Shown: positions 1,802-39,543, counted from the stretch's first letter. The stretch: 48,108 nt of DNA from an uncultured Methanosarcinales archaeon (GCA_964426715.1 CAYRRQ010000001.1:1-48108); one strand, 5' to 3'. Numbers and translations are program-made. The notes: generated by a model not told the origin, from the letters alone.

Positions 1802-1822
1802 TGAATATTAGCGTCATTAATT
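1802..1822 (-). promoter_or_regulatory. 21-nt promoter-upstream box (minus-strand sense AATTAATGACGCTAATATTCA), copy 1
   Basis: Perfect reverse-complement match to 45348-45368. It lies 24 nt upstream (in gene sense) of the TATA TTTTTTAAATAAG (1765-1777) of the thioredoxin-like gene. Confidence 0.45.
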
Positions 1823-3521: not shown

Positions 3522-4669
3522 GGTGTTTCACGCTCTTGCTTTTTCCTGGCAGAGGATTCTTGTCTTGTCCCATCTTCCTTATTTTCATCTTCTCTTCCAT
3601 CCCTTCCTCCTCTTTCTAGTCTTCCTCCCCTTCCTTCTCTTTCTTGTTTTTCTTCTCGTATTTTTTCTTCTTGTCTGCTCCTGCTCTTCTTATCGTCAGC
3701 AGTCATCTTAAGGAATAATTCATCCAGTCCTGGCCTGGAAACATGGATGTCAATCAGCTCCTCTCTCAGAGAGTCAAGCAAATGAAATAACTCGTGCAGT
3801 GCCCTCTGGGGCTCGTCAGAGTAGATTATTAGTTCTGAGCCCTTTATCCTTATGTCAAATACTTTGTTTGAGGGCTTTCTAAGAGCCTTTGCAATCTTGG
3901 AGTAGCTTCCAGGATAAGTCTGGATTCTTATCTGCTGGGAATCAGCGTACTTGGTCTTGAGCCGGGTCGGGCTTGCAACATCCAGTATCCTGCCTTCCTG
4001 GATAATGGCTATTCTTGAGCAAAAGGTCTCGACCTCTGACAAGTGGTGGCTGGCCAGGAGTATGGTAGTGCCTTTCTTGTTAATCTTTTTTACCAGGCTC
4101 CAGATATGCTCTCTCAGCAAAGGGTCAAGGTCTGCTGTGGGCTCGTCAAGTATCAGGATTTCTGGGTCGTGTATCAGGGCGCACGCAATATCTAGGCGCC
4201 TCTGCATGCCTCCTGACAGGTTGCCTGCAAGGACGTTCTCAGATTTTTTCAGGCTCATAAGCCTCATAAGTATTTCTGTGTTGGACTCAAGAGCTTCTCG
4301 TGGCAGTTTGTACAGGGAACCAAAGTATTTAAGGTTCTCCCTGACAGAGAGTTTCTTGTAGAATGAAGGTTCCTGGCTGGCAAAACCAAACAAGGTGCTT
4401 GCAAGCCTGGGATTCTTATAAACAGAAGCGTACAATGGCTTGTCAGGTTTTTTCTTCATAAAATAATCATACCTGAACTTAACATTTCCCTGCTCAGGTC
4501 TCAAATACCCCATGATATTCTTCAGCAGGGTAGTCTTGCCGCTGCCATTAGCGCCTACAAGCCCGAATACTTCTCCCTCCCCAACATCCAGATTGACTCG
4601 TCTGAGAACACGATTCCTTCCAAAACTCTTGCTTAAATGCTGGACTTTAAGAACCGGCTCCCTCTTCAT
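3518..4669 (-). CDS. ABC transporter ATP-binding protein (ABC-2/DrrA-like) with an Arg/Glu/Lys/Gly-rich C-terminal tail
   Basis: Walker A GANGSGKTT, signature LSGGMQRRLDIA and Walker B ILILDEPT are present. The last ~60 aa are low complexity (..QEEKIREEKQEREGRGGRLERGGRDGREDENKEDG..). A TATA-like TATTTAAAG at 4694-4702 lies ~27 nt upstream of the ATG. Confidence 0.95.
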   Translation of the reverse strand: MKREPVLKVQHLSKSFGRNRVLRRVNLDVGEGEVFGLVGANGSGKTTLLKNIMGYLRPEQGNVKFRYDYFMKKKPDKPLYASVYKNPRLASTLFGFASQEPSFYKKLSVRENLKYFGSLYKLPREALESNTEILMRLMSLKKSENVLAGNLSGGMQRRLDIACALIHDPEILILDEPTADLDPLLREHIWSLVKKINKKGTTILLASHHLSEVETFCSRIAIIQEGRILDVASPTRLKTKYADSQQIRIQTYPGSYSKIAKALRKPSNKVFDIRIKGSELIIYSDEPQRALHELFHLLDSLREELIDIHVSRPGLDELFLKMTADDKKSRSRQEEKIREEKQEREGRGGRLERGGRDGREDENKEDGTRQESSARKKQERETP

Positions 4670-4779: not shown

Positions 4780-5193
4780 ATGTTCATGAAGATAACCTTA
4801 CGCACCACCAAGAAGCAGGAACTGATTGACATAACTGAGCTTGTCAACAAGACTGTCAGGAAGAGCAGGGTGAAGAACGGCTTGTGCAATGTCTTTGTGA
4901 CTCATGCCACTGCTGCACTGATTATTAATGAGAATTACGACCCGAATATCTGCATTGATTTTCTTAAGGCAATTAACAAGGCGGTTCCTGAGCACGCAGG
5001 TTACCTGCATGACAAGGTTGATAACAACGCAGGGGCTCATATCAAAGCCGCAATATTAGGTCCTGGAGTCACAATCCCTGTAAGGGATAACCAGCTCAGG
5101 CTCGGAACATGGCAGTCAGTCATGCTCGTGGAGCTTGACGGCCCCATGGAAAGAAACATAGAGGTCAGACTCGTCCTATCTGACTATTCCTGA
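4780..5193 (+). CDS. yjbQ: YjbQ/UPF0047 family protein (secondary thiamine-phosphate synthase-like)
   Basis: Family-typical sequence: ..ELIDITELVNKTV..GLCNVFVTHATAALIINENYDPN..HIKAAILGPGVTIPV..LRLGTWQSVMLVELDGP..R. The TATA ATTATAAAAAC at 4755-4765 fits a leaderless start at the second ATG (4786). Confidence 0.85.
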   Translation: MFMKITLRTTKKQELIDITELVNKTVRKSRVKNGLCNVFVTHATAALIINENYDPNICIDFLKAINKAVPEHAGYLHDKVDNNAGAHIKAAILGPGVTIPVRDNQLRLGTWQSVMLVELDGPMERNIEVRLVLSDYS

Positions 5194-5702
5194 CAGATTC
5201 TCAGGCTTACCTCGACCTGACCGGGATTACGCGGGATTATTGAGAACCCAGATACCTGGTCGCTTCCAGGCTTGCACTGGTTAACAAAGCTTATGTCTGT
5301 GTTCTGCACACTCAGATTATAGTTTAAGCCCCACTCATCCAGGGTTCTGCTCAGCAGGGTATGTATGGTCTGGTTGGCTGCCTGGCAGCTGTTCAGGTCA
5401 TAGCAGTTGATTTGGTGGTAGTCTCTGGCGCAGTCAGCTATAAGTGAGGAGAGAGTGAGGTTATTGCACTCCGCTACATTAGTATTGGTCATGGCAATCA
5501 GGAAGTTGGTCGCTATTTCCTTGTCCATGTACCTCTTTTTTATGTCCTCGCGGGGATTGCCTATCTTGTAAACCATGAATATCATCATAGCTATGATTAC
5601 TATTACCACTATTACTGTGAGTCCTATCATTTCAAGTTGTGCTTTTTTCATGTTCTTCCTGTGTTTCATATTCTCAGATGCTTCTTTATTTTTCTTCTTC
5701 AT
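5184..5702 (-). CDS. Type IV pilin-like protein (class III signal peptide), otherwise unknown
   Basis: The N-terminus ..NMKKAQLEMIGLTVIVVIVIIAMMIF is a basic leader, then K-A-Q, then ~20 hydrophobic residues. The mature part has 6 Cys. ATGA overlap with the upstream gene. An alternative start is the ATG at 5651 (MKKAQ..). Confidence 0.6.
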   Translation of the reverse strand: MKKKNKEASENMKHRKNMKKAQLEMIGLTVIVVIVIIAMMIFMVYKIGNPREDIKKRYMDKEIATNFLIAMTNTNVAECNNLTLSSLIADCARDYHQINCYDLNSCQAANQTIHTLLSRTLDEWGLNYNLSVQNTDISFVNQCKPGSDQVSGFSIIPRNPGQVEVSLRICQE

Positions 5703-6226
5703 TCATAAAGTGTTATTTCCATGACTCCAAAAGCATAGGTGCGGGATAATGGGTTGTAGAGGTTTACAGGCACCCATATTATGTTCTGGTGGCTGGTACT
5801 ACCAGGGTTATTGTAGAGCCTCCAGTAATCCTTTTTATAGGTCTGGGTGTTAGAGGGATATACTTCTTTTACAATTATCTGGGAGTCTCCGAGCAGGTCG
5901 TAGTAATAATTAAAAGCTTGGCTGTCAGTGTGCCTGCTCTTATTGATAAAGTCGCTGAGCACGTTAAGCTTTATCCTGTCAAGGCACACGAACTGCTGGG
6001 CGCCTGAAGCAGAGCATTCTAGTTCTGGCCACGAACTCATCCTGTGAGCCAGTTCTATCACTTCTCTTGCTCTTTGTTCTCTCTGTTTTTCCTTTATAGT
6101 TCCCTCGTGAAACTTGGAGTAGATTACAAATCCGATTACTACGATTACAAGGATCAGGAAGATTACAAATATGGTTTCTGTTGTCTGCAGCTGGGCTTTG
6201 ATTCTTTTCATTTCTCTTTCATTCAT
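5699..6226 (-). CDS. Type IV pilin-like protein (class III signal peptide), otherwise unknown
   Basis: The N-terminus MNEREMKRIKAQLQTTETIFVIFLILVIVVIGFVIY follows the same leader/K-A-Q/hydrophobic-helix pattern as its neighbours. Confidence 0.6.
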   Translation of the reverse strand: MNEREMKRIKAQLQTTETIFVIFLILVIVVIGFVIYSKFHEGTIKEKQREQRAREVIELAHRMSSWPELECSASGAQQFVCLDRIKLNVLSDFINKSRHTDSQAFNYYYDLLGDSQIIVKEVYPSNTQTYKKDYWRLYNNPGSTSHQNIIWVPVNLYNPLSRTYAFGVMEITLYE

Positions 6227-6270
6227 TTCTCTTTTACGTGTCTTGCTTTACAATGATTCCTTAATATATC

Positions 6271-7362
6271 TTAATATATTAAAGGGCATTCTGTTTTGGT
6301 CATTAAATAATTGTTTAGTGATTTAAGATTATTAATAGCGATCAGGGCGGATTTGAAATTGACTATGTTGTCTGTGGGCTTTTCTTGTATGCCCTCTAAT
6401 TTTTTCATGCATTCCTTTGCTTCTTCATAATATTCTTTGCACGTATCCGGCACCTGCTTTGCATACATACTCATTCTCTCCTGGTACAACCTGCTCAGCA
6501 GACTGGTCCTTACAAAAACCTTTTTCAGGTTGCACTCATAGATTTTGTTGTTCCCGCTAATAACCGCGCCTAAAACTGTTGGCAAGTCTAAAAAAACAGA
6601 TTTTCCCTGGTACTCGAATTGTTCTTGTAGCGCATCGTATTCATAAAACCTTATTTCGCCCTGGGTCAGGGAGTCTCCTGATGAAATTATCAGGGCGGCG
6701 GCCTTGTCAGTGTTAAAGCCAGTGTTAAAATTAAGGAGTCTGCCCAGAACGTCGCTAGTGCCTTTATCAGTTTCCTGCATTACAAAGATTGTTTTGTCAT
6801 AATTCTTGTCAGGATAACCAGTAATGCTGCCGCTAATAATGTTCTTGGTGGTGTTGCCTGGCATGCTATTGTATATCAGGCTGAGCAATGACTGCGCCTC
6901 CAAGTCGTTGATTAAGAAGACGTATTCGACATCCTGATTAGTGATATATGTCAAGGATATTATTCTGAAGCCTGTGTTAACGTCTTTGTTCAGGATTAGG
7001 AGTCTCTGCCCGTCAAGAACAGGTGGTGAGAATAGGGCCTGATAATCATACCTTGCGTTGTAAGGTGAGCCCTCTACTGAGTAAGCCGAGTAGGACGTGT
7101 CAGTATCTGCGTCATAGCTGCTTTGAAAGGTTATCTTCTGATCAAACAACACGGTTTTCTGGGTTTGGTCAGCCGCACTGCTTACTCTGAGCAAGTCCTC
7201 TAATTCCTGGGTGCTCTTGGTCTTTTCCTCTTCATCCTGTTTGGCAGTTCTCTCGGTTATGAGACTGAAAAAAAATCCCAGGATTACAACTCCTGCTATT
7301 AATACGAACAACCAGTTGAACTGCATGGCAAAACCTTTTTTTGAAATTCTCGAAATTCTCAT
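6271..7362 (-). CDS. Type IV pilin-like protein (class III signal peptide), 363 aa, otherwise unknown
   Basis: The ORF track extends this to a GTG at 7392, inside the upstream gene. The ATG at 7362 gives MRISRISKKGFAMQFNWLFVLIAGVVILGFFF, a K-G-F cleavage-type motif plus a hydrophobic helix, and starts 5 nt after the upstream stop. Confidence 0.55.
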   Translation of the reverse strand: MRISRISKKGFAMQFNWLFVLIAGVVILGFFFSLITERTAKQDEEEKTKSTQELEDLLRVSSAADQTQKTVLFDQKITFQSSYDADTDTSYSAYSVEGSPYNARYDYQALFSPPVLDGQRLLILNKDVNTGFRIISLTYITNQDVEYVFLINDLEAQSLLSLIYNSMPGNTTKNIISGSITGYPDKNYDKTIFVMQETDKGTSDVLGRLLNFNTGFNTDKAAALIISSGDSLTQGEIRFYEYDALQEQFEYQGKSVFLDLPTVLGAVISGNNKIYECNLKKVFVRTSLLSRLYQERMSMYAKQVPDTCKEYYEEAKECMKKLEGIQEKPTDNIVNFKSALIAINNLKSLNNYLMTKTECPLIY

Positions 7363-7367
7363 TTCCT

Positions 7368-7916
7368 TCACTCGCTTAGCTCCTGCTCCCACCCAGATAT
7401 TATCATAGTTCTTCTGCCCGTTCCCTTGAACAAGAAATTGAACTCTCCACTCTTAGCAGAAAAGCACTTGAAAGGATAATCATTATCTGCTCCTCCTGTG
7501 CTTGACAAGGTGTTGCTCAATGAGACATCATCAGAATAAGCCACGGCTTCTGTGAATTCCCCTATAAAAAAGATGTTGGCAGTGCAGCTATCAACATTAC
7601 TGTAAATCACTTTATCCTCCTCTGGCAGGTTATTTAATCCTGGGCGCGGCTCTGCCTCGCAGTAATCAGAATCTGCAAAGCACACCTCTATTATTTCGCA
7701 CGGTGCTTCCATGACTTCCTGGTGCACGCTGCCCTTGTCAGTGTATTCCTCTATGAATCCGAGCAGATTATTTTCAAAGCTCACTCTCTGGTGTTCGCAA
7801 TTAGCACTTAGAATGCTGCTTATACCTTTATATCCAAAAACTGCTATCACCCCTATGACTAGGATGATTACTATGTAAGTAAAGGCCTGGCTTACTTGGG
7901 CTTTGTTCTGATACAT
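7368..7916 (-). CDS. Type IV pilin-like protein (class III signal peptide), Cys-containing, otherwise unknown
   Basis: The ATG at 7916, preceded by the SD-like GGGGACGGGTG, gives MYQNKAQVSQAFTYIVIILVIGVIAVFGY. The track start at 7922 is a GTG two codons upstream. Confidence 0.6.
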   Translation of the reverse strand: MYQNKAQVSQAFTYIVIILVIGVIAVFGYKGISSILSANCEHQRVSFENNLLGFIEEYTDKGSVHQEVMEAPCEIIEVCFADSDYCEAEPRPGLNNLPEEDKVIYSNVDSCTANIFFIGEFTEAVAYSDDVSLSNTLSSTGGADNDYPFKCFSAKSGEFNFLFKGTGRRTMIISGWEQELSE

Positions 7917-8036
7917 GCACACCCGTCCCCTCTCACTCTTTGCTCTTACGCTTCACTACTCTTTGCGCTTACTACTTTTTGCGCTTGCTCTTTGCTATCT
8001 TACTGGCTCTCTTACTTTTCGCTCTCTTACTTTTTG

Positions 8037-10043
8037 TTACTTTTTGCTTTCTTGCTTCTTATTTTTATCCTTGTCGCTTTTTATCAGGTCTTTCAATTTT
8101 TCAAAAGCAGGTGATGAAGTCTTTTGCAAGGCGGCTTGTTTCCCTTCTTCCTTATCTTTTTCCCTGGTTTTTTCCCGGGCTTTTTCTCCGGCCTTTTCTT
8201 TGCCTGGTTTCTTGCCTACAGAAGATAATGGTATGAATCCTTTTGCTGTCCTGCTCGGGGCTGGCTCCACAGGCGCCTTGACTTTGCCGGTTCCTGCTTG
8301 CTTTTCGCCTTTGCCAAACCTGTCAAACAATGCCCGTCTCTGGGATTTACCCCCAGAAGGCTCCCCGGGCCTGGTCTTGGCATAAACAAACCTTTTAGGC
8401 TTCTGACCCCGGCCTGTTCCCGGCCCTGTGATTCCCAACCTCATGGTTCCTGGCTTTTGCCCTGGTCCTGGCGGGTGGGTTCTGGCCTGACCTGGTAAGG
8501 GGCCTTTTCCTGTCCTGGCTGGACCAGCAAGACCTGCTTTTCTATAGTATACTAATAAGCCTGCGCTGCCAATCATTAATAACAAGCCCAATATTAGGAA
8601 TACTGTCTGAAAAGTATGCTTTTTCGCAGGTTCAGGGTCCTTGGGGTCTTCTGGGTCTGTGCTGTCCAGGTACTCGTCAAGATTAGAATAGCCGTCCCCG
8701 TCAAGGTCCTCATCAGCATCATAAGGGTCATTTGGGTCCAGGCCGTGGGCATTCTCCCACCAGTCAGGCATGCCATCACCGTCAGAGTCCTGTTCCTGGT
8801 CTGTTACGCATTTGCCTGCCACGCACATTAGTCCTTGTACACAGTCCTGGTCTGAGTTGCACTGCTCATTAACAGAGCATCCTGAAGCGCAGCTCCCGCC
8901 GCAGTCCACTCCAGTCTCATCCCCATTCTTAAAACCATCACTACAACTGGGAATCGCGCATGTGCCTGTGTCTGGGTTGCAAAAGCCTGTTGTGCAGTCA
9001 GAATCTATATTGCATTTTTGGCCCTGACTACAGGAGGGGCAATCACCTCCGCAATCCACGTCTGTTTCCAGGCCGTTGAGAGTGTTGTCTGTGCATGAAG
9101 CCTGGGCGCAAACATTGTTTTTACAGAAATATGCGCAGCAATCACTATCTTCTAAACAGGTGTTTCCCAGGGCGCAGCAGGGGCAGCTGCCACCACAGTC
9201 TGTATCTGTTTCATCACCGTTAAACTCGTCGTCATAACAGCTCTTATTATCATCTCCTGCGGCCTCACAATAAGTGGTGTCAAAATGGCAGTCATCCCTG
9301 CATCCCAGCGCGCCGCCAGTAAAGGCCTCAAAGTCTTTGCAATCATTAATTTCTCCAAAGTCATGGTAATCGCAGAGCTCTGCATCATTTAATTCATGGT
9401 CCCCGCAATAACCAGAAGCATTGCTCTGACAGTCGCTTGTGTCAAAAAAGCAGTCATCCCTGCAAGCTAGGGCGCCTCCTTCAAACACGCCTAATGAGTT
9501 GCATGTCTGTCCGTTAAGTTCATAACCATCGCATTCTTCGCCTGCGTCTATCACATTATTACCGCAGACTTCCAGCTTGCAATAAGCACTGCATCCGTCT
9601 CCGTCCTGGTTGTTGCCGTCATCGCATTCCTCGCTGCTGCTCTTCACACCATTACCGCAGCCCGCAGGAATAGGCACCTCTATCTCAAAGGTCTTGGTAT
9701 CGTTCCTGGTATTGCCCACATTATCAGCTACTTTAATAAAAAATGTGTACTCGCCTGTTTTTAGTTTGCTCCTAGGCTCGTATATAATGGTCTTGCCGCT
9801 GTTAAGCACTGTTTTGTCCATGCCATAAAAAAGGGATTGTTCGTCTTTGAGAGTTGCAGACACCACTTCTACTTCTTCAGGATAAGTAGCATTTATTATT
9901 ATGTCTGAACTATTAATAGTAACCCATGTCGCGGCCTGAACCCGTGCAGAAGAAACCATTAACAGGAATAGAGCAACAAATAATAGAATCGAGTTGAAAA
10001 GCATGGCAAACAATAATTTTTTTCTTTTCAAAATAAAAAACAC
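8037..10043 (-). CDS. Modular cysteine-rich surface protein, type I membrane topology with a Lys/Gly/Pro-rich cytoplasmic tail
   Basis: Signal peptide ..LLFVALFLLMVSSARVQA. Then a beta-sandwich-like segment, then CGNGVKSSSEECDDGNNQDGDGCSAYC (Myxococcus-type Cys-rich repeat), then 2x ..GGAL.CRDDC.FDT..C. Next come 3 tandem ~48-aa modules C.D...NG.ETD.DCGG.C..C..G..C..D.DC....C, and Asp-rich TSP3-like Ca-binding repeats (DSDGDGMPDWWE..DEDLDGDGYSNLDEYL). TM helix TVFLILGLLLMIGSAGLLVYY is followed by a ~185-aa K/G/P-rich tail. The start is ambiguous: GTG 10043 lies inside a GAGGTG, and TTG 10031 or the downstream ATG (M13) are alternatives. Confidence 0.8.
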   Translation of the reverse strand: MFFILKRKKLLFAMLFNSILLFVALFLLMVSSARVQAATWVTINSSDIIINATYPEEVEVVSATLKDEQSLFYGMDKTVLNSGKTIIYEPRSKLKTGEYTFFIKVADNVGNTRNDTKTFEIEVPIPAGCGNGVKSSSEECDDGNNQDGDGCSAYCKLEVCGNNVIDAGEECDGYELNGQTCNSLGVFEGGALACRDDCFFDTSDCQSNASGYCGDHELNDAELCDYHDFGEINDCKDFEAFTGGALGCRDDCHFDTTYCEAAGDDNKSCYDDEFNGDETDTDCGGSCPCCALGNTCLEDSDCCAYFCKNNVCAQASCTDNTLNGLETDVDCGGDCPSCSQGQKCNIDSDCTTGFCNPDTGTCAIPSCSDGFKNGDETGVDCGGSCASGCSVNEQCNSDQDCVQGLMCVAGKCVTDQEQDSDGDGMPDWWENAHGLDPNDPYDADEDLDGDGYSNLDEYLDSTDPEDPKDPEPAKKHTFQTVFLILGLLLMIGSAGLLVYYRKAGLAGPARTGKGPLPGQARTHPPGPGQKPGTMRLGITGPGTGRGQKPKRFVYAKTRPGEPSGGKSQRRALFDRFGKGEKQAGTGKVKAPVEPAPSRTAKGFIPLSSVGKKPGKEKAGEKAREKTREKDKEEGKQAALQKTSSPAFEKLKDLIKSDKDKNKKQESKK

Positions 10044-10137
10044 CTCTTTTTACTAATCTTATTCTCTTAATCTTTTTCTTAATTTATTTAATGAAAATTA
10101 TCAAACTTATTCTTAACCTAACTTATTTATTTACTCT

Positions 10138-13062
10138 TTAATCAGCAGCATAAACAGTGATTATCGGCTCTTCAGGCGGCTCTATGTCCAGGAGTATGCC
10201 CAGCAAAGTGTTCTGATACGTGTTCCCTGCAAAGTCCTCAGCATAAAAAACAACGTTGGTCAGCGTGTCGCTCCCAACATTTATCTGAAGCGTGAATTTT
10301 CCTGTGTCATCTGAGAAGCAGGGCGTCTGGCTGCTTGTTAACAAGCAGTTATTCACGCATGTAGTCTCGCCGGTATTAGTGTTCCTGGCACACACATACC
10401 TTGAATCAGTAGAGGTCTCACCCTTAACGGTGAGGTTCTGCTCATTAGTAGGGTACTCATCTGGCTCTGAGGGGGTGGTAATGTTTATAAAAGGCTTGTC
10501 TGCGTCCACGCTTATACTGAGGCTCTTAACCAACTCTAGGTTCTGGGCAGGGTCCTGGGTGTAGTAATAAACATGATAATCCCCTGACTCCTCAATCTCC
10601 TCTGAGTACACCTTCTCATCATTATCCGCCTCCTCTGTAGGATAGCAATAATCCTTGTCTATGCAGAAGAAAGTAGTGAGCTCATCAGAGGGATAATTAT
10701 CTAATGTGCTGAAACAAATCTCCAGCTCGGCGGGGTAAACCCCGAAGGTTGATGGGATAATCCTGGTTTCAGGATTAGAGAAATCTGCTTCGCACTCAAG
10801 ATCTCCTGGAAAGCAGTCCCTAACACGATTATTATCTTCATCTCTCTTGTTATCCGCATCCCTCCTGCAAATAGTATTCACAGAATCATAATAGCATTTA
10901 CCCAATCCCAGCTCATCATCACTGGGAACACTTAAATCATGAGTCCCTCCAACCCGCGCTCCCAAGTCATTGTACTGCGCGTCTACATACACTGATTGGC
11001 CACCAGTACAATCATCTGCATCAGAATAATCCATGCAAGTAGCAGTCGAGCTCTTAGTGCAGGGCTCAGAGCCACCCCCATAATAACATTCCCCAAACAA
11101 GTCGCAGGTCTGCGGAGAGCAGCCAGGGCTAAGCCAATTATACTCTGGCTCATCACAATACTCGCATTTTTGAAGTTCTTCTGCTACGGGCCTGCAAATG
11201 CCACCCAAAGAATGAGAATCTTCATCCAGCCACAACCACTCGCAGCCCTGGTTCTTATCGCAGGGGTCCGCTTTATCCTCGCAAGCCTCCTCTGACTTGT
11301 AATCATAGCAGGAAGTAATCTCAGCACAGTAATCAAAGGCACTGAACAAAGCCTGTGTGCGGTCAAGGTAACAACCAGTTACCACGTCTCTTCCAGTGCC
11401 GGGATAACAGTATTTCAAGATTTCTTCAGAGCCTTCTTTGACACCAATTCTCAAATCAAGGTAAGAGAACATACCGTACAAGCCATTGCATAAGTCGCAC
11501 ACCCCTTCTTCAGTACAGTTGGTCTGACCATTCACAGGACCCACGCAATACTCAGCGGGGTTGCAGTCCTCTATAATCTCAATATTATTATCCTCATCGC
11601 ACCGCGCCCTCTTATTATCCCAGCAGAACTCATCAGAGTGCGGCTCTAGGCAGTAATAATCACCTGTGCTCACGCACTGAATCTCTGATTCAGCAAATTC
11701 AAGGTCAGAACGCACATAATCAACCCTCACATAATAGCAGTATTCAGACGTCTCAGTTATGGACGTGTCAGAATAATTCATAAGACTCCTTGCAATGCTT
11801 CCAAGCTGGGAAAAACCATCATTTTCTGAAAGACAATCATTCTCAGATTCTTTTTTGCACTTAAAAACCGTGGAGCCCCCGATGCTGGGCTTACAAGAGT
11901 CTGGAAGCGTCCATGACAAGAATATTTTCTGGTTAGTATAATTAAACTCTGCACTGATCTCAGGTATCTTGGTAGTGTCAGTGCATTGCAGGTCTCCGCA
12001 CTGGCAGTCCTCGCATGGCGTGCCATCAGAGCACATCGTGTTAATCTCACAGTCCTCACCTGACTGAAGGATCAGGTCTCCACATTGCGCCAGGGTGTTG
12101 CAGTTGCAAGCCACGCAGTCATCTCCTGAGCAAAGACTGAGCTGGCCGTCAGCAGGGTCTTCTTCACAAGTCTCATAAGGATAAGTCACTATTCCGTCGC
12201 CGCACTCTGCAGAATAAACATTGCAGTCAGCATCTGTACTAACCGTGCACATATAAGGGCAGAGTCCGTTCTTCTGGCTTGCATCACAATAACAATCATT
12301 ATCATTAGAGGATGTACACGGTAAAATACACTTGTCATCATTATCTATGCAATACTCTTCTTCACACTCAGCATCATAAGAACAAAGAGCACAGTAATCA
12401 TCTTTCTCATCTGCATCTGACAAGTCATAAAGCGCCCATTTCCCTGCAGACGTACAATAAGCGTCCTCGTCAGTATCGCAATCACCAGGGCTGCATGAAC
12501 AGTCTAGGGAAAAATCAACATCCTCTCTGTCAGAATCCAAATCAAGTATTTTTCCTTTTTCTAAACAACCCGCCTTACTAATACCCAGGACGACCGTGCC
12601 CCCAGACACCTGATCTAAAACATAGTCTCCCTGACTATTAGTATAAGTAATAATGTCTGATCCTACAACAGCAACAGCCGCGCTTACCAAAGCACTCCCC
12701 TGCTTGTCAGTCACCGCTCCTGAAATAGTGTAGGTGTTTGCATCGCCACAAGAGCAGTCCTCCCCAAGACTAAGAGAATCCTCTTCTATAAATACCTCTG
12801 CGGAGGGGCAGGTATAATTAATCTTGATAACCCCGTCTGAGTCCAGGGAAGGACAGCAGCATCCCTGCACGCACGCAGAAAGGTCAGCGCAATCAGCAGC
12901 ATCATATTCTCCTGACGAACACTGACCATCATCATCTGATATGCATTCCTCCCCCGTAGCATTAACACAGCAGCCCGCACTTACCACGCCCGACATTAAG
13001 ATAAGCATCAAGACTACTATGAACAACACGCACAGTGTTACTAAAAAAACTTTTTTGTTCAC
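10138..13062 (-). CDS. Large secreted cysteine-rich protein (974 aa) with carboxypeptidase-regulatory-like, FN3-like and C-terminal Ig-like beta-sandwich segments
   Basis: GTG start with SD GGTGAGGT upstream. Signal peptide MNKKVFLVTLCVLFIVVLMLILMSGVVSA. YTISGAVTDKQGSALVSAAVAVVGSDIITYTNSQGDYVL is CarboxypepD_reg-like. ..KIFLSWTLPDS..YCYYVRVDY is FN3-like. Dozens of Cys occur throughout, and there is no C-terminal anchor. A TATA GATTTATATACC lies in the 156-nt upstream spacer. Confidence 0.8.
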   Translation of the reverse strand: MNKKVFLVTLCVLFIVVLMLILMSGVVSAGCCVNATGEECISDDDGQCSSGEYDAADCADLSACVQGCCCPSLDSDGVIKINYTCPSAEVFIEEDSLSLGEDCSCGDANTYTISGAVTDKQGSALVSAAVAVVGSDIITYTNSQGDYVLDQVSGGTVVLGISKAGCLEKGKILDLDSDREDVDFSLDCSCSPGDCDTDEDAYCTSAGKWALYDLSDADEKDDYCALCSYDAECEEEYCIDNDDKCILPCTSSNDNDCYCDASQKNGLCPYMCTVSTDADCNVYSAECGDGIVTYPYETCEEDPADGQLSLCSGDDCVACNCNTLAQCGDLILQSGEDCEINTMCSDGTPCEDCQCGDLQCTDTTKIPEISAEFNYTNQKIFLSWTLPDSCKPSIGGSTVFKCKKESENDCLSENDGFSQLGSIARSLMNYSDTSITETSEYCYYVRVDYVRSDLEFAESEIQCVSTGDYYCLEPHSDEFCWDNKRARCDEDNNIEIIEDCNPAEYCVGPVNGQTNCTEEGVCDLCNGLYGMFSYLDLRIGVKEGSEEILKYCYPGTGRDVVTGCYLDRTQALFSAFDYCAEITSCYDYKSEEACEDKADPCDKNQGCEWLWLDEDSHSLGGICRPVAEELQKCEYCDEPEYNWLSPGCSPQTCDLFGECYYGGGSEPCTKSSTATCMDYSDADDCTGGQSVYVDAQYNDLGARVGGTHDLSVPSDDELGLGKCYYDSVNTICRRDADNKRDEDNNRVRDCFPGDLECEADFSNPETRIIPSTFGVYPAELEICFSTLDNYPSDELTTFFCIDKDYCYPTEEADNDEKVYSEEIEESGDYHVYYYTQDPAQNLELVKSLSISVDADKPFINITTPSEPDEYPTNEQNLTVKGETSTDSRYVCARNTNTGETTCVNNCLLTSSQTPCFSDDTGKFTLQINVGSDTLTNVVFYAEDFAGNTYQNTLLGILLDIEPPEEPIITVYAAD

Positions 13063-13218
13063 TCAAACCTCACCTTCCCATTAAAAGACCTCTTCAGGCC
13101 AGGCCTCAGGTCTCTCATCAGGTCGCTCCCCGGTCATTCCTGATTTTACCCTAATCCTATGCCTTATTATCATAAAAATTTTTGTTTAAAGGTATATAAA
13201 TCTTTTTATTGAATTATG

Positions 13219-14904
13219 TTATGTGATTATGTATGCCGGCGGGTTTGCCTGGGACAGCTCATTGACATCATAACAAGAACCCCTGAACTGGCTGCTCTGG
13301 TTCTCAACCACCCAAAAACACCCGGGCATAGCATCCACGCACGCGGATTCGCCCAGAGCAGAGCAGGTAATCGGGCCAGGAGCCTCTGAATAATAAATAT
13401 TAGACACACAGTTATAGCACTCCGCGTCCTCAGACAAGGTACAAAACTTGCGCTGGCACTCGCTAAAACAAGGATTGCCTGCTAAAAAGCACCATTCATC
13501 ACAATCAGGTATGCTGCTATTTTCTGAGCAGTCAGCAACACAACTGTCTGTTGGCTGCCGGTCAAATCCGCGGTCAGTAATATTAACCCAAAATAGCTGG
13601 TAATCGAATAAGCCGCTGTCATCCAGCACCAGAAGCGTTATGTTATGCATTCCATAATCATACCTGCTAACATGCAATTCAAGCATGACCTGGTATTGCT
13701 GTTCAAGCCTGCCATCCTCCTCAGCTACACGAGGAGAAAAATAAGAAGACACATAATAGGTTATGCCTAAATCATCAGGGTCATATCCCTGCAAAGGAAT
13801 CTTAACCACATAAATGTCATCATCCAAGTCAAGGGTCTGGTTGCTAATACTGGCCAGCACAGGCCTCCTATTCTCAACAGCCGCCCTGATAGTCAGGGGC
13901 TTTCTGTTCACAACACTCTCCCTGTCAATCACCTGAATAATATTATCATGCCTTGCGGGCAGGGAAGCATCATGATTCTTATCTCTCATCTTAATAACAG
14001 ACAATCCTTCTCTCCAATATTCGGAAGCAACGTATTCCTTTAGCAGGTCAAAGTCATATCTCTGAGCATCCCTCCGGAGAATGTCGTACAAGAAGTTATA
14101 AGTCCTAGCCAGCGCGAGGTTCATGCTGGTCTGGTACTCGGTTATACGGGTTACTGGTTCGCCGCCCTCAAAAGCAATAGTCACAGGATACTGCACATTT
14201 ATTATGAGTTCTGAATCACGCATTACCAAGTCAACAACAGGCTCGGATTCTTCTCTTATGTCAGCCTCCATGTTCCTGGCAAAAGCAGAAAAATTAACAC
14301 AGCGCCCCAGACGGCTGGCAATATAATCCTCTATCTGCCTCTGAATGGTCAGGCCGAGCTGGTCGCCCTTTGCAAAAGGTTCACAGCTTGACTCCTTGGC
14401 AGAGTAGCACAGCTTGTTCAGACGGCTCTCTCCAAAAAAGCCGTCATAAGAAGATAAGAACCGGCATCCCTCAGTATTATAAGTGCTTACAAGCTGGTCA
14501 AGAGCAACAGAAGGATGCGGGTAAGCAGGGATTGAATAATCTATAACTGGGCACTCCTTGTTTTTTTTCAGGGCATAACTCACAAAGTAAGTTTTGTTCT
14601 CATAAGTGAAATTAAGATAGTCCCTGCCATGCTCCTGGGCCCGGAACGGAATGGTTCCTCCTTCAAAATCATAGATTACCCCGCCGTTAAAACCTATACT
14701 CTGCACAGCATCAGCAGTAAGTTGTTTCACGCAATCAGTTATATGATTCTTAATACTCCCTGTTTTTAACTCGTTAAGAACCCCTTCCAAGGTATTGGTT
14801 TTGGGACGGGCAGCTTCTTTAACCGCCAGGATTATTATTAAGAGTATAAATATTATTAAGCCCAGGATTACAAACATTGTTATCTGAGACCTTTTTCCCT
14901 TCAT
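13219..14904 (-). CDS. Large (561 aa) protein with a pilin-like class III signal peptide and a Cys-rich C-terminal region
   Basis: The N-terminus is MKGKRSQITMFVILGLIIFILLIIILAV. The C-terminal ~110 aa are Cys-dense (..CVADCSENSSIPDCDEWCFLAGNPCFSECQRKFC..). A strong SD GGGAGGAG lies 8 nt upstream of the ATG. Confidence 0.6.
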   Translation of the reverse strand: MKGKRSQITMFVILGLIIFILLIIILAVKEAARPKTNTLEGVLNELKTGSIKNHITDCVKQLTADAVQSIGFNGGVIYDFEGGTIPFRAQEHGRDYLNFTYENKTYFVSYALKKNKECPVIDYSIPAYPHPSVALDQLVSTYNTEGCRFLSSYDGFFGESRLNKLCYSAKESSCEPFAKGDQLGLTIQRQIEDYIASRLGRCVNFSAFARNMEADIREESEPVVDLVMRDSELIINVQYPVTIAFEGGEPVTRITEYQTSMNLALARTYNFLYDILRRDAQRYDFDLLKEYVASEYWREGLSVIKMRDKNHDASLPARHDNIIQVIDRESVVNRKPLTIRAAVENRRPVLASISNQTLDLDDDIYVVKIPLQGYDPDDLGITYYVSSYFSPRVAEEDGRLEQQYQVMLELHVSRYDYGMHNITLLVLDDSGLFDYQLFWVNITDRGFDRQPTDSCVADCSENSSIPDCDEWCFLAGNPCFSECQRKFCTLSEDAECYNCVSNIYYSEAPGPITCSALGESACVDAMPGCFWVVENQSSQFRGSCYDVNELSQANPPAYIIT

Positions 14905-15023
14905 GTTCCTAACTCCTCCCTCTTCTCATCTCACTTATCATCTGCCTTATCATCCACCTTAGTATCTGCCTTCTTCTCATCTACTATCCTCATCTGAACT
15001 TTATCTGAACTCCTCTGCTGAAC

Positions 15024-15950
15024 TCATCTGAACACCAGGCTGGCATAGCTCACACTATTAGTATAATCCCCGGTCACGTCTCCTGACGTATAGTACTGCT
15101 CTAACACAGGCCTGTTAAAACCAACTGTTTTCAGGAACAGGGCAATGGCCAGGAAGCCGCAGATAGTCGCCCCGGTCTCCCTGATATAATTCAAAAAGCC
15201 GTGGGCATCAACCTGCTTAATATAATCAATAGCTTTCATATCCAGCTCCCTGATCTTCTTGATCTTCTCCTCAACCAGGCCAGGATTCTGCTCTGAACGC
15301 CCTGAACCCTCTGAATATTCTGAATAATCCGAACTCCTGGAAAAAGGAGTAAAGCCATAATTAGGACCATAATGAATGAAATCTGAGCTCACAATAAAAC
15401 AAGCCTTTTTCCTGAGCTTCCCAAGAGCCTCTTTTAAGTCGTGGGAGGCCCTGTCCAGGTCTAGGTCATCGGATACGAGCAAGGGCAGGATCTTAATCTT
15501 CTCAGCCCTGGATTTAAGAGAGAACTGGAGGAACGGGAGCTGCACTTCCAGGCTGTGCTCCTGTGCATGAATGCTCTCATCAACACCTATACTCCCCTGT
15601 GACTTTACTTCCCTGGCAAGCTCCTGGTCAACACGCACCAAGCCAAGAGGAGTCTTAAAGGTCTGCACAGAAATGCCAGAGCAGTTGCTCTGGTGGTTAG
15701 GACCGAGCATGACAAATACATCTGGCAGAGGCGCCTCTGCCAAGGCCTTATAACTCCAGGCCGCAGCCATACCACTATAAACATAGCCTGCATGAGGCGC
15801 AATAATACCCTTAACCTGAAGCGCGTCTTTTCTTGGCTTCACAGGAAGCGCGCCAGGACCCAATTCATGAGCATAGCATGCTTCCAAAGCCCTGTTCAGG
15901 GCATTAACAGTGCCTGGATAAAACATGCCTGCATAAGCCGGTTCTCTCAT
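15024..15950 (-). CDS. MEMO1 family protein (AmmeMemoRadiSam system protein B)
   Basis: MREPAYAGMFYPG..IIAPHAGYVYSG..LGPNH..EHSLEVQLPFLQF..SSDFIHYG..TICG are all family-typical. The ATG at 15950 is preceded by the SD-like GGTGGT. The ORF track start at 15977 adds 9 unlikely residues. Confidence 0.85.
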   Translation of the reverse strand: MREPAYAGMFYPGTVNALNRALEACYAHELGPGALPVKPRKDALQVKGIIAPHAGYVYSGMAAAWSYKALAEAPLPDVFVMLGPNHQSNCSGISVQTFKTPLGLVRVDQELAREVKSQGSIGVDESIHAQEHSLEVQLPFLQFSLKSRAEKIKILPLLVSDDLDLDRASHDLKEALGKLRKKACFIVSSDFIHYGPNYGFTPFSRSSDYSEYSEGSGRSEQNPGLVEEKIKKIRELDMKAIDYIKQVDAHGFLNYIRETGATICGFLAIALFLKTVGFNRPVLEQYYTSGDVTGDYTNSVSYASLVFR

Positions 15951-15978
15951 AATTACCACCACAAAAAAATTATTCAAA

Positions 15979-18900
15979 TTATTCCTGCTCAGGAGTTCTT
16001 AGAAGGGTCAGGGCAGTCCAAACATCAGTTTCGTCTGAATCAGGATTCTTAATAAAAACATGGTTGTTGTCAAAAACAACTTCATCTCCCTCTAACCCGA
16101 GCACCAGGTGGCTAAGGTCAAGTGATGAAAAACCAGTATAATTAAAGGTAAAAAACTCGGACTTCTGCGCCAGGACCTGATCACAGCTCTCCTCTGACAC
16201 ACCAAACACCCTTTTACGGGTTCCCTGCCTTGCAGCATACACCTTGTTGAACAAACTCAATTTTTGCATATCCTCTTCTAACTGAGAAGGATTAGGGCAG
16301 AGCCACTTGAGCCAGTCAGGAAGCGCATCACAAATCTGTTCTCCCAACCCCAGGCTCAAACTAACCCTTTCATCACTGAAAACAACCATATTATAACCAT
16401 CATCATAATACAATTTAAGAAAATCATTATCCACACACTTCTCAAAATCATCAGTGTCTTCATCACAAGACGAGTCAAAGCTTATTCCAGAGTCAGGATA
16501 AGATAAATAAAAGCTCTGCTCAAGAGCAGTTATAAAATCATTATGGTCCTCATCATACAACGGCTGGTTAAGAGTCGTGCCAATAATCCTCTGGCCATCA
16601 AGGTTTAATACGCAGAAGTTATTGGACTCGCCAATATTCTGCTTGTTAACCAGGACTTCCTCAGCAGGACCGCACATCAAGACAAAATCATCATCACTAC
16701 CTGCTAATGATATCAGTTTCTCAGCCAGCAGCTTAGTCCTAGTAGTCCAGTTTCCGCTAATGCAAACAAAGTCTTCTATGACCTGGCCATCGCCTATGCA
16801 GCGCGGATTGGCTCCAGAACTCACATTATTATTCTGAGAAGCATCACCCGCAATATTATACAAGCACTGCGAATCCTGAGGGCAGGTACCTGCATAGCAA
16901 TTGTCAGGCGTGCGTTTAGCAGTAGCAAACACATTAACCCATTCCCCGTCAGAACACGCATATGCCAGGGTTTCATTAATTTTATAATAATCAGAAGAAG
17001 CACCCACGCACAAACCCTTATTAGGGTCCCAGCACTTATTAGGCTCACAGCAACTAGCATTCCTAGCATTATCAGAAACTGACTCTTCCTCCCTAAGATA
17101 ATCCATTAAGTCAGCAGGCACAACAGAATCATGCGAAAGAAGAGGGCCATAAGAATACGTCCAATTATTATCATAGCTGCAATACCAGAGGTCGCTGGTC
17201 GTATTAATATGCTTGCAATAAGCAACACGCTCAATAAGGGGCTCGCCGGTCTGAGTATCTTCTCCCCCACTACCCGGATTAGGCCAGTCCTCAACACTCA
17301 ACAAGCACTCAAGGGGAAGTACGCCATCCGCATCAGGAACACAAACAGGACTCTCATTAGGGTATTCTCTCTCAAGAGTAACCCCTTCAGCACTGGCAAA
17401 TCCGCAGCCATAAAAAGAACCATTGCTAACCAAGACATCAGAATATTCCACATCATTGTAAAAAAGGAAGTTGCTGTTATCCTGGGGCATACCCTTAAAA
17501 CAAGCCCCGGTCTGACTGCCAGGGTCATTATAAGACTCATTAAATAATGTGCTGGTATCGTCCTGCTCAGCACAGCAATAACTGCCCGTGCCTATAAATC
17601 CAGAATCCGCGCACTCATCTTGCAGAGACTCATTATCAAAATCAGTGCCCCAGCTGCCATTACCAAGACAGTAAAGCCGGCCATTCTCAAGCGCCATGTA
17701 TTCACCAGTATCATACTTTATTCCGCCGGTACCAATCTCTCCAGGGATGTCATCGCAGCCAGCATCGCCACAGCAAACATGAACCCTGGCCTCTACATCC
17801 CCGCCAAAACCGTCATCCGGAGTGTTAAGCGTTGCTGAGCACATATACTCATGGCCTTCAACAGTTCCCATGGGTTCATCACTGCCAGTAAAAACATAAT
17901 TCAAAGCAGTCAATTTCTCAATAGTATTCGAGTCTGAACTATTCACAGGAGGCCTGCAAAGATAAGCCATCCTGTAAGCACTGGAATAACCAAGATTAAA
18001 CAACCAGGTATTCTCATTAGCAACATTATCCAAGGAGACATCATGAGCGCCGAGAGCAATCGAAATTCTTCCTGGACAGGCAACCTCTACCATAGTATTC
18101 CAATAATTACTTCCGCCAGTAGTCCAGTTCCTTATAACTGCAGGGCAGTTCTTATAATTAAAAATCCCTCCGCCATCAGAGCCATGACCAATACTGCCAA
18201 CAGTCCCAATATTACCCGGCGCATCAACTATAGAGACAAAAGCAAAAACATCCCCGCTAGTCATATCTGACTCAAAACCAGTGCAAAGCAAATCTGTACC
18301 CCTCTCATATGCAAGTAAAACCTCCTCTGCATCAACCACGTGGCCGTCGCAGGGATTAGCATGAGGAGTATACCTGGTGCCGCCAACAGCATACTCTCCA
18401 GAACCGCAATAATAGCTTCCCTCACCTCTAAGAAAACCCTCAAAGTCATTACCTGCGTTTTCCTCAGGCAAACACATTTGGGGGTGGCCTGAATAAGCAG
18501 CCAGATACCCCTCCTGGTCGTCATGGTCAACACACCGCACATATTCTCCTTCGAGTTGCACAATAGGATAATTATCCCATTCCTCAGAGCAACTAGGAGC
18601 AATAAACACTTCTCCCTCAGTAGATTCCTCTCCAGTATGCCATTGATGGCCATCACACAAAGCAGTTATATGACAGAGCGAGGACTCTCCCTGCAAACTC
18701 GGTATTCTGCACTTATTATTACCGCAGCAGCCAATACCCTCAATAAAATCTGCACCAGGAGCAGCAGCTTCGCAAACAGCACTATCCTCATCAATCTGAC
18801 CTAAAAGAAACACAGAAGCCGAACCAGAAGAAGAATAACTCACACCATCAGTTGAACTTACCTCATATGGAAAAAAGGTTTCATAAAAACGAGCATCCTC

Positions 18901-19557
18901 ATCGTCAAAATCTGCCTTTGCAACACAGTTTTTATTCTCACAAAAAGGAGTTTGGCCAGAGCAAACCTTCTCAGTTACGCTACTTCCCTCTGTAAACCCG
19001 CAACCGCCACAGTTCAAAGGGTCAAAAGTAGTGTTAACACAGGCATGATTGTTTTTTATTTCTATTCCATCAGGATAAATATCATTGAAATCATAAGGAT
19101 AATCATCAAAATCCTGAGGTACAGGGCACCAAGCGCAGTCAGACACACCATTACAAGTATCTTTATCAGTTATGTCTTCGCAGATAGCCGTCTGACCTGG
19201 CGGACTAATAGGATTCTCACAATAAGTACTTGCATCAGCCCCCTCAGGAATGCAGTAATGAATTGTTGGATTTGAAGGATGCGGAGAAGAATACTCAGAT
19301 TCCACATCACAAGTAATGCATTTCATCCCCTCGCCACAAGTATATGTATTAAGTATGTCACAATAATAAATCTCCTCATATCCACAGCCCTCATAAGATT
19401 GATAATGTGTGTTATTAACACACCACGAAGGACAATCCCCTTTTGTATTTCCCAAGCACCAGGTACCAAGAGCAAAAACAGATATGCCTAATGAAGAGAA
19501 AAAAATCAGGATTATCATACCAACTAACATCCTTTTTTTATTTAACAGCCCACCCAT
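15979..19557 (-). CDS. Giant secreted cysteine-rich protein (1192 aa), no domain recognised
   Basis: N-terminal signal or anchor MGGLLNKKRMLVGMIILIFFSSLGISVFALG. Cys-rich throughout, with many N-x-S/T sequons. First gene of the co-oriented cluster, with a TATA at 19588-19599 upstream. Confidence 0.8.
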   Translation of the reverse strand: MGGLLNKKRMLVGMIILIFFSSLGISVFALGTWCLGNTKGDCPSWCVNNTHYQSYEGCGYEEIYYCDILNTYTCGEGMKCITCDVESEYSSPHPSNPTIHYCIPEGADASTYCENPISPPGQTAICEDITDKDTCNGVSDCAWCPVPQDFDDYPYDFNDIYPDGIEIKNNHACVNTTFDPLNCGGCGFTEGSSVTEKVCSGQTPFCENKNCVAKADFDDEDARFYETFFPYEVSSTDGVSYSSSGSASVFLLGQIDEDSAVCEAAAPGADFIEGIGCCGNNKCRIPSLQGESSLCHITALCDGHQWHTGEESTEGEVFIAPSCSEEWDNYPIVQLEGEYVRCVDHDDQEGYLAAYSGHPQMCLPEENAGNDFEGFLRGEGSYYCGSGEYAVGGTRYTPHANPCDGHVVDAEEVLLAYERGTDLLCTGFESDMTSGDVFAFVSIVDAPGNIGTVGSIGHGSDGGGIFNYKNCPAVIRNWTTGGSNYWNTMVEVACPGRISIALGAHDVSLDNVANENTWLFNLGYSSAYRMAYLCRPPVNSSDSNTIEKLTALNYVFTGSDEPMGTVEGHEYMCSATLNTPDDGFGGDVEARVHVCCGDAGCDDIPGEIGTGGIKYDTGEYMALENGRLYCLGNGSWGTDFDNESLQDECADSGFIGTGSYCCAEQDDTSTLFNESYNDPGSQTGACFKGMPQDNSNFLFYNDVEYSDVLVSNGSFYGCGFASAEGVTLEREYPNESPVCVPDADGVLPLECLLSVEDWPNPGSGGEDTQTGEPLIERVAYCKHINTTSDLWYCSYDNNWTYSYGPLLSHDSVVPADLMDYLREEESVSDNARNASCCEPNKCWDPNKGLCVGASSDYYKINETLAYACSDGEWVNVFATAKRTPDNCYAGTCPQDSQCLYNIAGDASQNNNVSSGANPRCIGDGQVIEDFVCISGNWTTRTKLLAEKLISLAGSDDDFVLMCGPAEEVLVNKQNIGESNNFCVLNLDGQRIIGTTLNQPLYDEDHNDFITALEQSFYLSYPDSGISFDSSCDEDTDDFEKCVDNDFLKLYYDDGYNMVVFSDERVSLSLGLGEQICDALPDWLKWLCPNPSQLEEDMQKLSLFNKVYAARQGTRKRVFGVSEESCDQVLAQKSEFFTFNYTGFSSLDLSHLVLGLEGDEVVFDNNHVFIKNPDSDETDVWTALTLLRTPEQE

Positions 19558-38759: not shown

Positions 38760-38853
38760 CTTTGTTTAATTTCTGTGATAAGAAATTATTCTTGTTTCTT
38801 TGGTTTTGTCTTGGTTTTTTGTAATAAGGAATTTGGCTTTCTCCTCGAGAAAA

Positions 38854-38874
38854 TTTCCAGAAGAAACAAAGGTT
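38854..38874 (+). promoter_or_regulatory. ORB-like box TTTCCAGAAGAAACAAAGGTT
   Basis: Shares TTTCCAGAAGAAAC.AAAGG with the box at 39544-39569. It abuts the cdc6 TATA (TTTATAAAC on the minus strand, 38871-38879). A weaker same-orientation copy, TTTCAGGAAGAAATTTTGGTT, lies near 38988-39009. Confidence 0.5.
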
Positions 38875-39171
38875 TATAAAGTTTCTTTTCCTGTAGAATA
38901 TATTATTTAATATATATGGACTTAAAATATATTTATAACTAAATATGAGTGGGATTAGAGTGTGACGCCATGATTTCGTGTGGAGTTTTTTTCAGGAAGA
39001 AATTTTGGTTTTTGATGAATTCTTAATTCTTTTGGTGGACTTCCAATTTATTTAGTGGATGTCTAATTAGTGTTAATTTTTTTATTGAAAAATTATGAAA
39101 AAAGAGTGAATTTAATTTAAAAATCATCTGAACTTGTCTGAAGCCTAAATTAAATCACTATATTGAAAAGA

Positions 39172-39460: not shown

Positions 39461-39543
39461 TAAAAACAAAAATAATCAAGACCAAAAATAACAAAATAAC
39501 AGAAAAATAAAGAAAAAACAAACCCATCGCTCTAAATCTTCAC

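Follow-up and report, generated by a model that had tools for sequence, protein, structure and literature searches.

Positions 1-48,108 of contig CAYRRQ010000001.1 (GCA_964426715.1, an uncultured Methanosarcinales archaeon), here called the window and described on one strand, carry a block of nine minus-strand open reading frames (ORFs) at 5184-19557. With a probability of roughly 0.55, we read this block as an accessory module, supplying minor pilins and adhesins, of a type-IV-filament-like surface apparatus that is confined to Woesearchaeota and related Nanoarchaeota. It looks like the adhesive part of an appendage whose motor genes lie elsewhere. Eight of the proteins are named by their length in amino acids (aa), namely g172, g175, g363, g182, g668, g974, g561 and g1192, and the ninth is a MEMO homologue (Table 1). 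A first-pass annotation, made from the sequence of the window, had described the block as a nine-gene surface island of five pilin-like proteins, three giant Cys-rich secreted proteins and a MEMO enzyme, with no assembly machinery in sight. Our ORF calls reproduced the nine genes and their coordinates, with spacers ranging from a 4-nt overlap to 156 nt. The archaeal origin of the window is evident from the encoded TBP, MCM, PolD DP1 and DP2, Orc1/Cdc6, RNase P p30-like protein and aIF2-beta.

The reading starts from the N-termini of g172, g175, g363, g182 and g561, each of which opens with [K/R]-[G/A/S]-[Q/F] followed by about 20 hydrophobic residues. In a six-frame scan of the window for [KR][GAS][QF] plus a hydrophobic stretch, the pattern was located at a real ORF start only in these five genes, whose N-termini had been quoted correctly before; the seven other matches were antisense, out of frame, or internal SpoIIM membrane segments. 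To describe the conservation of the motif, we compiled 111 distinct orthologous N-termini from the five families and numbered the residues from the putative cleavage site. In the g182 family (n = 20), position -1 is Ala in 14, Gly in 4 and Ser in 2 sequences, and position +1 is Gln in all (three of them read by eye as [K/R]-A-Q). The g172 family (n = 25; Ala 19, Gly 4, Ser 2) and the g561 family (n = 16; Ser 8, Ala 5, Thr 2, Gly 1) likewise have Gln at +1 throughout. The g175 family (n = 27) has Ala in 21, Gly in 3 and Ser in 2 at -1, the window's own protein reading K-A-Q, and Gln in 24 and Glu in 3 at +1. In the g363 family (n = 23), Gly occupies -1 in 21 sequences and Ala in 2, and +1 is Phe in 18, Gln in 4 and Val in 1, with Phe in the window clade and Gln in sister lineages; g363 has no acidic residue near its N-terminus. 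Position -2 is Lys or Arg across the families, rarely Asn or Gln. The leaders upstream of the motif are free in length and sequence, and the motif and the following helix are the best-conserved N-terminal parts; in a 26-sequence alignment of g561, Q7 and T9 are nearly invariant.

Because the motif of each family is kept in orthologues from ~30 other contigs, the pattern is far beyond chance. Profile comparisons (hhalign) between the five families detected similarity at the N-terminus only, implying that they are not detectable paralogues. The simplest reading of these sequences is that one peptidase would recognize all five families. Gln at +1 is also what marks the substrates of EppA, a peptidase of Methanococcus (PMC3875500). 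The class III signal signature noted in the first-pass annotation thus extends to the whole set of 111 N-termini, and it is quite likely, judging from the sequences, that the five are class III signal-peptide, pilin-like proteins; cleavage is predicted.

Structure prediction was applied to two of these proteins. The AlphaFold2 model of g175, calculated from a 57-sequence alignment (predicted local distance difference test (pLDDT) score, 87.4), consists of a helix at residues 3-64 and an antiparallel sheet of four strands at 115-174, with two short helices in between. Its alpha-1 extends ~53 residues past the putative cut, and the modeled topology is of the classical pilin type. In the g561 model (pLDDT 69), a helix at 4-32 is followed by a stretch of poor prediction, then by beta-sandwich domains, and last by a helical end rich in Cys, where most of the 19 Cys residues lie. 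A Foldseek search with this model matched the cadherin-like modules of the staphylococcal adhesin SraP (E 3.4e-5) as well as cadherins, over part of the model only and with a low overall template-modeling score (TM-score). Because a pilin-type N-terminus is combined here with cadherin-like beta-sandwich matches, g561 looks, from its model, like a modular pilin carrying an added adhesin part. At the level of sequence families, four members of the g172 family gave sub-threshold matches to Pfam DUF7288 (best E 1.1e-4), and PDB sequence-profile searches with all five pilin-like families returned nothing meaningful.

The three large secreted proteins were confirmed as Cys-rich, and the adhesin-like character ascribed to them before is consistent with the Ig-like, CarboxypepD_reg, TSP3 and Cys-rich repeats that we found. 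Among the nine block proteins, Pfam and NCBIfam scans gave domain-level matches for g668, g974 and the MEMO homologue only. The matches in g668 were Big_13 and Y_Y_Y (Ig-like), DUF4215/myxo_disulf_rpt Cys-rich repeats, and TSP3_bac calcium-binding repeats, and they are followed by a membrane-spanning segment (478-500) and a basic cytoplasmic tail of 168 aa. This C-terminal arrangement is present in six of ten orthologous ORFs examined, and three of the other four stop at a contig edge. g668 is the variable member, with orthologues of 455 to 2705 aa. By comparison, g974 (CarbopepD_reg_2, E 1.4e-8) is the best conserved of the large proteins, with 37-49% identity over nearly the full length of complete orthologues, every one of which has 78-82 Cys. 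Its family comprises 327 clusters at 50% identity, mostly of 1200-3500 aa, and all named members are from Woesearchaeota or Nanoarchaeota and annotated only as 'carboxypeptidase regulatory-like domain-containing protein'. g1192 has no Pfam or NCBIfam match; its C-terminal ~460 aa are conserved and its N-terminal part is variable, so that orthologues of 1303-1905 aa in some relatives align over query residues ~730-1192 only. Neither g1192 nor g974 has a membrane anchor of its own. The MEMO assignment of the 317-aa protein, which sits between g1192 and g561 in the window clade, proved correct (Pfam Memo, E 1.8e-59; TIGR04336, AmmeMemoRadiSam system protein B, E 1.7e-66). Neither of its system partners, AMMECR1 (protein A) and a radical SAM ORF, is encoded in the window.

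To determine the extent and conservation of the unit, we compared the neighborhoods of g561 homologues and 21 further metagenome contigs. All ~30 related Woesearchaeota/Nanoarchaeota contigs share one gene order, flanked by the same housekeeping genes, which answers a check that the first-pass annotation had proposed: a helix-turn-helix (HTH) gene, THUMP and p30 upstream, then g1192, Memo, g561, g974, g668, g182, g363, g175 and g172, then YjbQ (in some loci), an ATP-binding cassette (ABC) ATPase and an ABC-2 permease. Within the four-gene run, g182 is always first and g172 always last, and the four small proteins are 30-57% identical to those of the window. A distant relative (L017, g175 40% identical) has the order p30, g561-like, g974-like, g668-like, the four small genes and ABC, lacking both g1192 and Memo. 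The conserved core therefore consists of seven genes (g561, g974, g668, g182, g363, g175, g172), with Memo and g1192 as extras peculiar to the window clade. We accordingly rejected MEMO as a functional member of the core, and the nine-gene unit proposed earlier shrinks by two.

The same comparison does away with the term island. Since the housekeeping neighbors are the same in every relative and the GC content of the block (0.42-0.48) equals that of its flanks, the block is vertically inherited, and it is under selection. Its phylogenetic range is narrow. The g561 family comprises 37 clusters, all unnamed or 'hypothetical', whose named organisms are Candidatus Woesearchaeota, and in a GTDB-based collection g561 was carried by only nine species-level genomes, all Woesearchaeota/Nanoarchaeia metagenome-assembled genomes (MAGs), some under older labels. 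The g175 family is larger (71 clusters), and every named member is from Woesearchaeota or Nanoarchaeota.

Sister lineages carry the module in a wider setting; one of their loci, L016, was reached as that of a distant relative through the g175 family. Five loci (L016, L040, L041, L042 and L043) share the order g974-like, g668-like, g182, g363, g175, g172, a six-gene core without g561, in which the g974-family giant measures ~2000-2500 aa where complete. In L016, L040 and L041, the four small genes and the g668-like gene were verified with profile hidden Markov models (HMMs), as was the g974-like gene of L040 and L041; L042 and L043 were assigned by gene sizes and order, and L042 by N-terminal sequences too. 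After g172 come some four pilin-like genes, then short pilins (one or two, of 78-104 aa), some seven proteins with K-G-Q or K-K-G at the N-terminus, and a final protein of 750-1400 aa. The short genes are major-pilin-like, of the 'KGQGISINxIIIAAIALLVL' type; in L016 two of them (80 and 88 aa when counted from the Met closest to the motif) begin MNRKGQGISIN-IIIAAIA. When these short pilins served as queries, at least 495 clusters of proteins 78-118 aa long came up, from MAGs labeled Nanoarchaeota, Woesearchaeota or 'DPANN group'. The final protein carries a peptidoglycan-hydrolase domain in five of six loci when L044 is included: SLT in L016, L042 and L044, NlpC/P60 in L041, and 3D in L043. Where its N-terminus was read, it is pilin-like, with K-A-Q in L016 and L042 and R-K-G-V in L041; the final protein of L040 begins K-G-Q and has no recognized hydrolase domain. 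Altogether, the six loci are runs of ~10-17 consecutive genes, nearly all with K-G-Q, K-A-Q or K-K-G and a hydrophobic helix.

L044 contains only the second half of this arrangement, from the short pilins through the SLT protein, beside unrelated genes, implying that the two halves are separable modules, A and B. The window carries module A without module B. In hhalign comparisons of the window families with 12 module B families, similarity was confined to the N-terminus, and g561 and g1192 had no module B counterpart. A gene for an RPA-like OB-fold protein follows the cluster in L040, L042, L043 and L044. These loci suggest a broader scenario, which we put forward tentatively and with clearly less confidence than the assignment of the module itself. 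Woesearchaeota and Pacearchaeota may possess a two-module apparatus of ~20 mostly pilin-like genes, with adhesins and four minor pilins in module A and short major pilins and a hydrolase pilin in module B, whose filament would attach to bacteria and breach their walls (cross-domain parasitism). The window clade, which has g561, g1192 and MEMO instead of module B, would then represent a variant for another partner.

For the module in the window, we propose the following mechanism. A prepilin peptidase encoded elsewhere would cut the five proteins after the small residue. g182, g363, g175 and g172 would form an initiation or tip complex that parallels the bacterial GspH-I-J-K and FimU-PilV-W-X complexes, with the large g363, devoid of an acidic N-terminal residue, in the place of GspK. 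Insertion of this complex into a short filament would fall to an ArlI/PilB-type ATPase and a platform protein, also encoded elsewhere. The filament tip or the membrane base would hold the acidic, disulfide-rich, calcium-binding large proteins (g974 and g1192 soluble, g668 anchored), and g561, as a modular pilin with cadherin-like domains, would help to present or retain them. The assembly could thereby mediate attachment to a partner cell or surface; host attachment is plausible as its role, at a lower probability than the module assignment.

Several observations weigh against this reading. No significant match to T2SSE, T2SSF or Peptidase_A24 was found among the window ORFs of at least 120 aa, and no ATPase, platform protein or prepilin peptidase was found within up to 10 kb of flank in ~35 related loci, which include the neighborhoods of distant family members and of short-pilin homologues. 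According to one preprint, DPANN genomes lack type IV pilus components (10.1101/2020.05.14.094862). The window has no short major pilin. Foldseek gave no significant PDB match for the g175 model (best E 0.03, no pilin), none of the nine proteins and 24 family members matched the Pfam pilin families Class_IIIsignal, Pilin_N and N_methyl, and g175 is the sole one of the four small proteins that was modeled. The substrates of EppA in Methanococcus maripaludis have leaders of 5-13 residues ending in Gly, a conserved +1 Gln and a +5 Glu (PMC3875500), and the +5 Glu is absent here: Glu stands at +3 in g172 and at +6 in g175, and g363, g182 and g561 have none. Finally, how the tip complex is arranged and how it binds the large proteins is purely inferred. 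Of the fold check proposed in the first-pass annotation, the long helix and the sheet of g175 came out as anticipated and a PDB pilin match did not, so membership in the pilin fold is suggestive, not proven.

The missing machinery was presented in the first-pass annotation as an anomaly. The absence from the window is real. The pilin genes of M. maripaludis lie at four or more chromosomal loci (PMC3875500), and according to a 2026 census some DPANN archaea have loci of the system 1, Aap-like and 4A kinds, and pilin genes often lie at separate loci (bioRxiv 10.64898/2026.04.22.720090). Since archaeal pilin genes are often located away from the ATPase and platform genes, their absence from the window is no anomaly in itself. 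Homologues of flaI, flaJ and flaK are reported for most Woesearchaeota MAGs in three genome studies (PMC5994134, PMC11606122, PMC9723730).

Some of the same observations fit a different explanation, in which the five N-termini are uncleaved signal anchors and the proteins form a membrane-tethered scaffold that holds the Cys-rich proteins in an envelope layer (a surface coat or S-layer accessory), with no filament and no type IV machinery. The lack of machinery genes near any of the ~35 loci, the statement of the DPANN preprint, the absence of Foldseek or Pfam pilin matches and the missing +5 Glu all speak for it, as does the transmembrane anchor that g668 has of its own. However, a plain anchor needs neither Gly, Ala or Ser at -1 nor Gln at +1, let alone in five unrelated families and 111 sequences, and it does not account for the pilin-typical 53-residue alpha-1 and sheet of the g175 model. 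The sister-lineage module moreover adjoins short, Flp-sized proteins of the large family described above, and the FlaI/J/K homologues of most Woesearchaeota MAGs argue against a lineage devoid of type IV machinery. We consider the scaffold unlikely, at about one chance in five.

Somewhat less probable still is that the four small proteins build a short, type II secretion-like pseudopilus that drives or threads the large proteins, once exported by Sec, across the S-layer, no adhesive pilus being formed. Four pilin-like proteins, one of them large, placed directly after large secreted proteins recall GspH-I-J-K, and g974 and g1192 are anchorless. Nevertheless, archaea lack an outer membrane, the block is linked to neither secretin-like nor machinery genes, and the joining of the sister-lineage block to major-pilin-like genes is a better fit to a real filament. 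That the block is a horizontally acquired surface island or an ORF-calling artifact is refuted by synteny and ORF conservation and can be dismissed, because the same HTH-THUMP-p30 and YjbQ/ABC flanks occur in all relatives, all nine ORFs have orthologues at 30-60% identity, and odd composition appears in the window only at 28-32 kb and 38-40 kb.

Several neighbors of the block deserve description (Table 1). The ABC-2 transporter follows g172, with or without YjbQ in between, in all window-clade loci with enough downstream flank and in L017, and it is not found within the flanks examined of L016 and L040-L043; a functional link to the module is unproven. Its ATPase has a charged C-terminal extension and its permease a large extracellular coiled-coil region. 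Downstream of the permease, at least 12 related loci encode a 657-aa orthologue of the GILT/DsbA-like protein (Pfam GILT, E 1.4e-16; Thioredoxin_4; DSBA), which might, speculatively, act outside the cytoplasm as a thiol-disulfide enzyme for the Cys-rich surface proteins.

As to signals within the block, a TATA-like TTTAAA lies 37 nt upstream of the g1192 start and is the sole clear element of this kind near a start codon; further TATA-like elements lie 128-138 nt upstream of g974. The spacers at 14905-15023 (upstream of g561) and 7917-8036 (upstream of g182) are purine-rich and internally repetitive and have no TATA-like box. The distance from the g1192 stop to the Memo start (15977-15981) is 1 nt with a TTG start and 28 nt if Met at residue 10 starts Memo; whichever start is used, Memo is probably co-transcribed with g1192 in the window clade. 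Rfam and tRNA scans of the window found no RNA genes. Farther away, a 1318-aa ORF, unusual both in its domain architecture and in its GC content of ~30%, against ~45% for the rest of the window, may be foreign DNA. The ~1-kb spacer between orc1/cdc6 and the gene for a TrmB regulator, with a GC content near 0.3, A/T-rich tandem repeats and a 17-nt direct repeat (TTTCCAGAAGAAAC[A/C]AA) at 38854 and 39544, is probably a replication origin.

Table 1. Genes of the block and other features of the 48,108-nt window, with positions counted from its first nucleotide.
Feature	Position	Strand	Length	Description
GILT/DsbA-like membrane-anchored protein	1-1719	minus		Cut by the window start; two thioredoxin-fold domains with a CPYG motif each
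ABC-2 transporter	Permease 1821-3521; ATPase 3518-4669	minus		Pfam ABC_tran, ABC2_membrane_3
g172	5184-5702	minus	172 aa	Small, pilin-like; N-terminus K-A-Q-L-E-M-I-G and hydrophobic helix
g175	5699-6226	minus	175 aa	Small, pilin-like; N-terminus K-A-Q-L-Q-x-x-E-T; start overlaps g172 gene by 4 nt
g363	6271-7362/7392	minus	363/373 aa	Largest of the four-gene run; N-terminus K-G-F-x-x-Q-F-N-W
g182	7368-7916/7922	minus	182/184 aa	Small, pilin-like; N-terminus K-A-Q-V-S-Q-A-F-T-Y
g668	8037-10043	minus	668 aa	Type I membrane protein; Sec-type signal; 42 Cys
g974	10138-13062	minus	974 aa	Secreted, acidic; 82 Cys; CarboxypepD_reg domain
g561	13219-14904	minus	561 aa	Modular, pilin-like; N-terminus K/R-[S/A]-Q-I-T and helix; 19 Cys
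MEMO/AmmeMemoRadiSam protein B homologue	15024-15977	minus	317 aa	Cytoplasmic
g1192	15979-19557	minus	1192 aa	Secreted; 66 Cys; 16 N-glycosylation sequons
PPDK_N ORF	27631-31587	plus	1318 aa	PPDK_N and two PEP-utilizers mobile domains, no PEP-utilizers_C
Spacer between orc1/cdc6 and TrmB regulator	38760-39770			
Hef	45452-47734			Last gene of the window

To our knowledge, no Woesearchaeote has been grown so far, and gene-level leads are all there is. For the question of how DPANN archaea recognize and hold their partners, the locus provides conserved, lineage-wide candidates: four invariantly ordered pilin-like proteins, one modular pilin, and two or three surface proteins that are very large and rich in disulfides. 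In sister lineages, such candidates lie in physical linkage with the large murein-hydrolase proteins, which had been taken in earlier work to point to bacterial hosts. The literature is also in conflict on whether DPANN archaea use type IV filaments at all, a question on which the locus bears, and the module offers a handle on how uncultured Woesearchaeota and Nanoarchaeota attach to their partners.

Searches of Pfam, NCBIfam, PDB sequences and the literature found no described system that matches the block, in agreement with the first-pass annotation. An archaellum locus was rejected, as neither the nine proteins nor the other window ORFs matched an archaellin or Arl family. The bindosome is similar in that it involves non-filament proteins bearing class III signal peptides, and in that an ABC transporter is encoded next door. 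However, none of the nine block proteins has a substrate-binding-protein domain and the adjacent transporter (ABC2_membrane_3) is of the ABC-2 type, presumably an exporter, and this candidate was rejected as well.

The Epd pili of M. maripaludis, 'system 1' of the type IV filaments (TFF), are closer. They share the basic -2, small -1 and Gln +1 residues, several minor pilins of 130-300 aa, and pilin genes distributed among several loci, apart from some of the machinery (PMC3875500), and system 1 has been reported in some DPANN archaea (bioRxiv 10.64898/2026.04.22.720090). On the other hand, no DUF361/Class_IIIsignal (PF04021) similarity was detected in the window proteins, position -1 is occupied in the window clade mostly by Ala or Ser in place of Gly, and there is no Glu at +5. 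The window locus also has no EppA, ATPase or platform gene, and Epd loci have no large Cys-rich proteins. An assignment to Epd or TFF system 1 was rejected; of its defining features, only Gln at +1 was found.

Individual components have parallels too. PilB of Streptococcus sanguinis is described as a modular pilin that takes part directly in adhesion (PMC8179133). g561 resembles it in combining a pilin-type N-terminus with adhesin-like, cadherin-like Ig domains, although the added domains are unrelated and g561 is archaeal and known from sequence alone. The large SLT proteins of these archaea have been flagged as hints of bacterial hosts or prey, in two studies that make no mention of pili, pilus or pilin (PMC8204110, PMC9723730). 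Such a large lytic-transglycosylase protein of Woesearchaeota/Pacearchaeota (fam00969, PMC8204110) closes the cluster in L016, L042 and L044. In L016 and L042 the same cluster holds orthologues of the window module, whereas the window itself has no hydrolase gene.

In bacteria, minor pilins form tip complexes in type IVa pili (FimU-PilVWX-PilY1) and in type II secretion (GspH-I-J-K), and PilY1 is a beta-propeller protein. The block differs from them in its archaeal host, in the absence of detected homology and in having two or three Cys-rich large proteins instead of one beta-propeller PilY1, and its complex is putative. Nevertheless, it shares with these systems four ordered pilin-like proteins, of which one is about twice the size and has no acidic N-terminal residue, a co-encoded large, Sec-exported non-pilin adhesin and an operon that can sit apart from the motor genes. 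We regard the module as a pilin and adhesin module related to type IV filaments and previously undescribed in the literature that we found.

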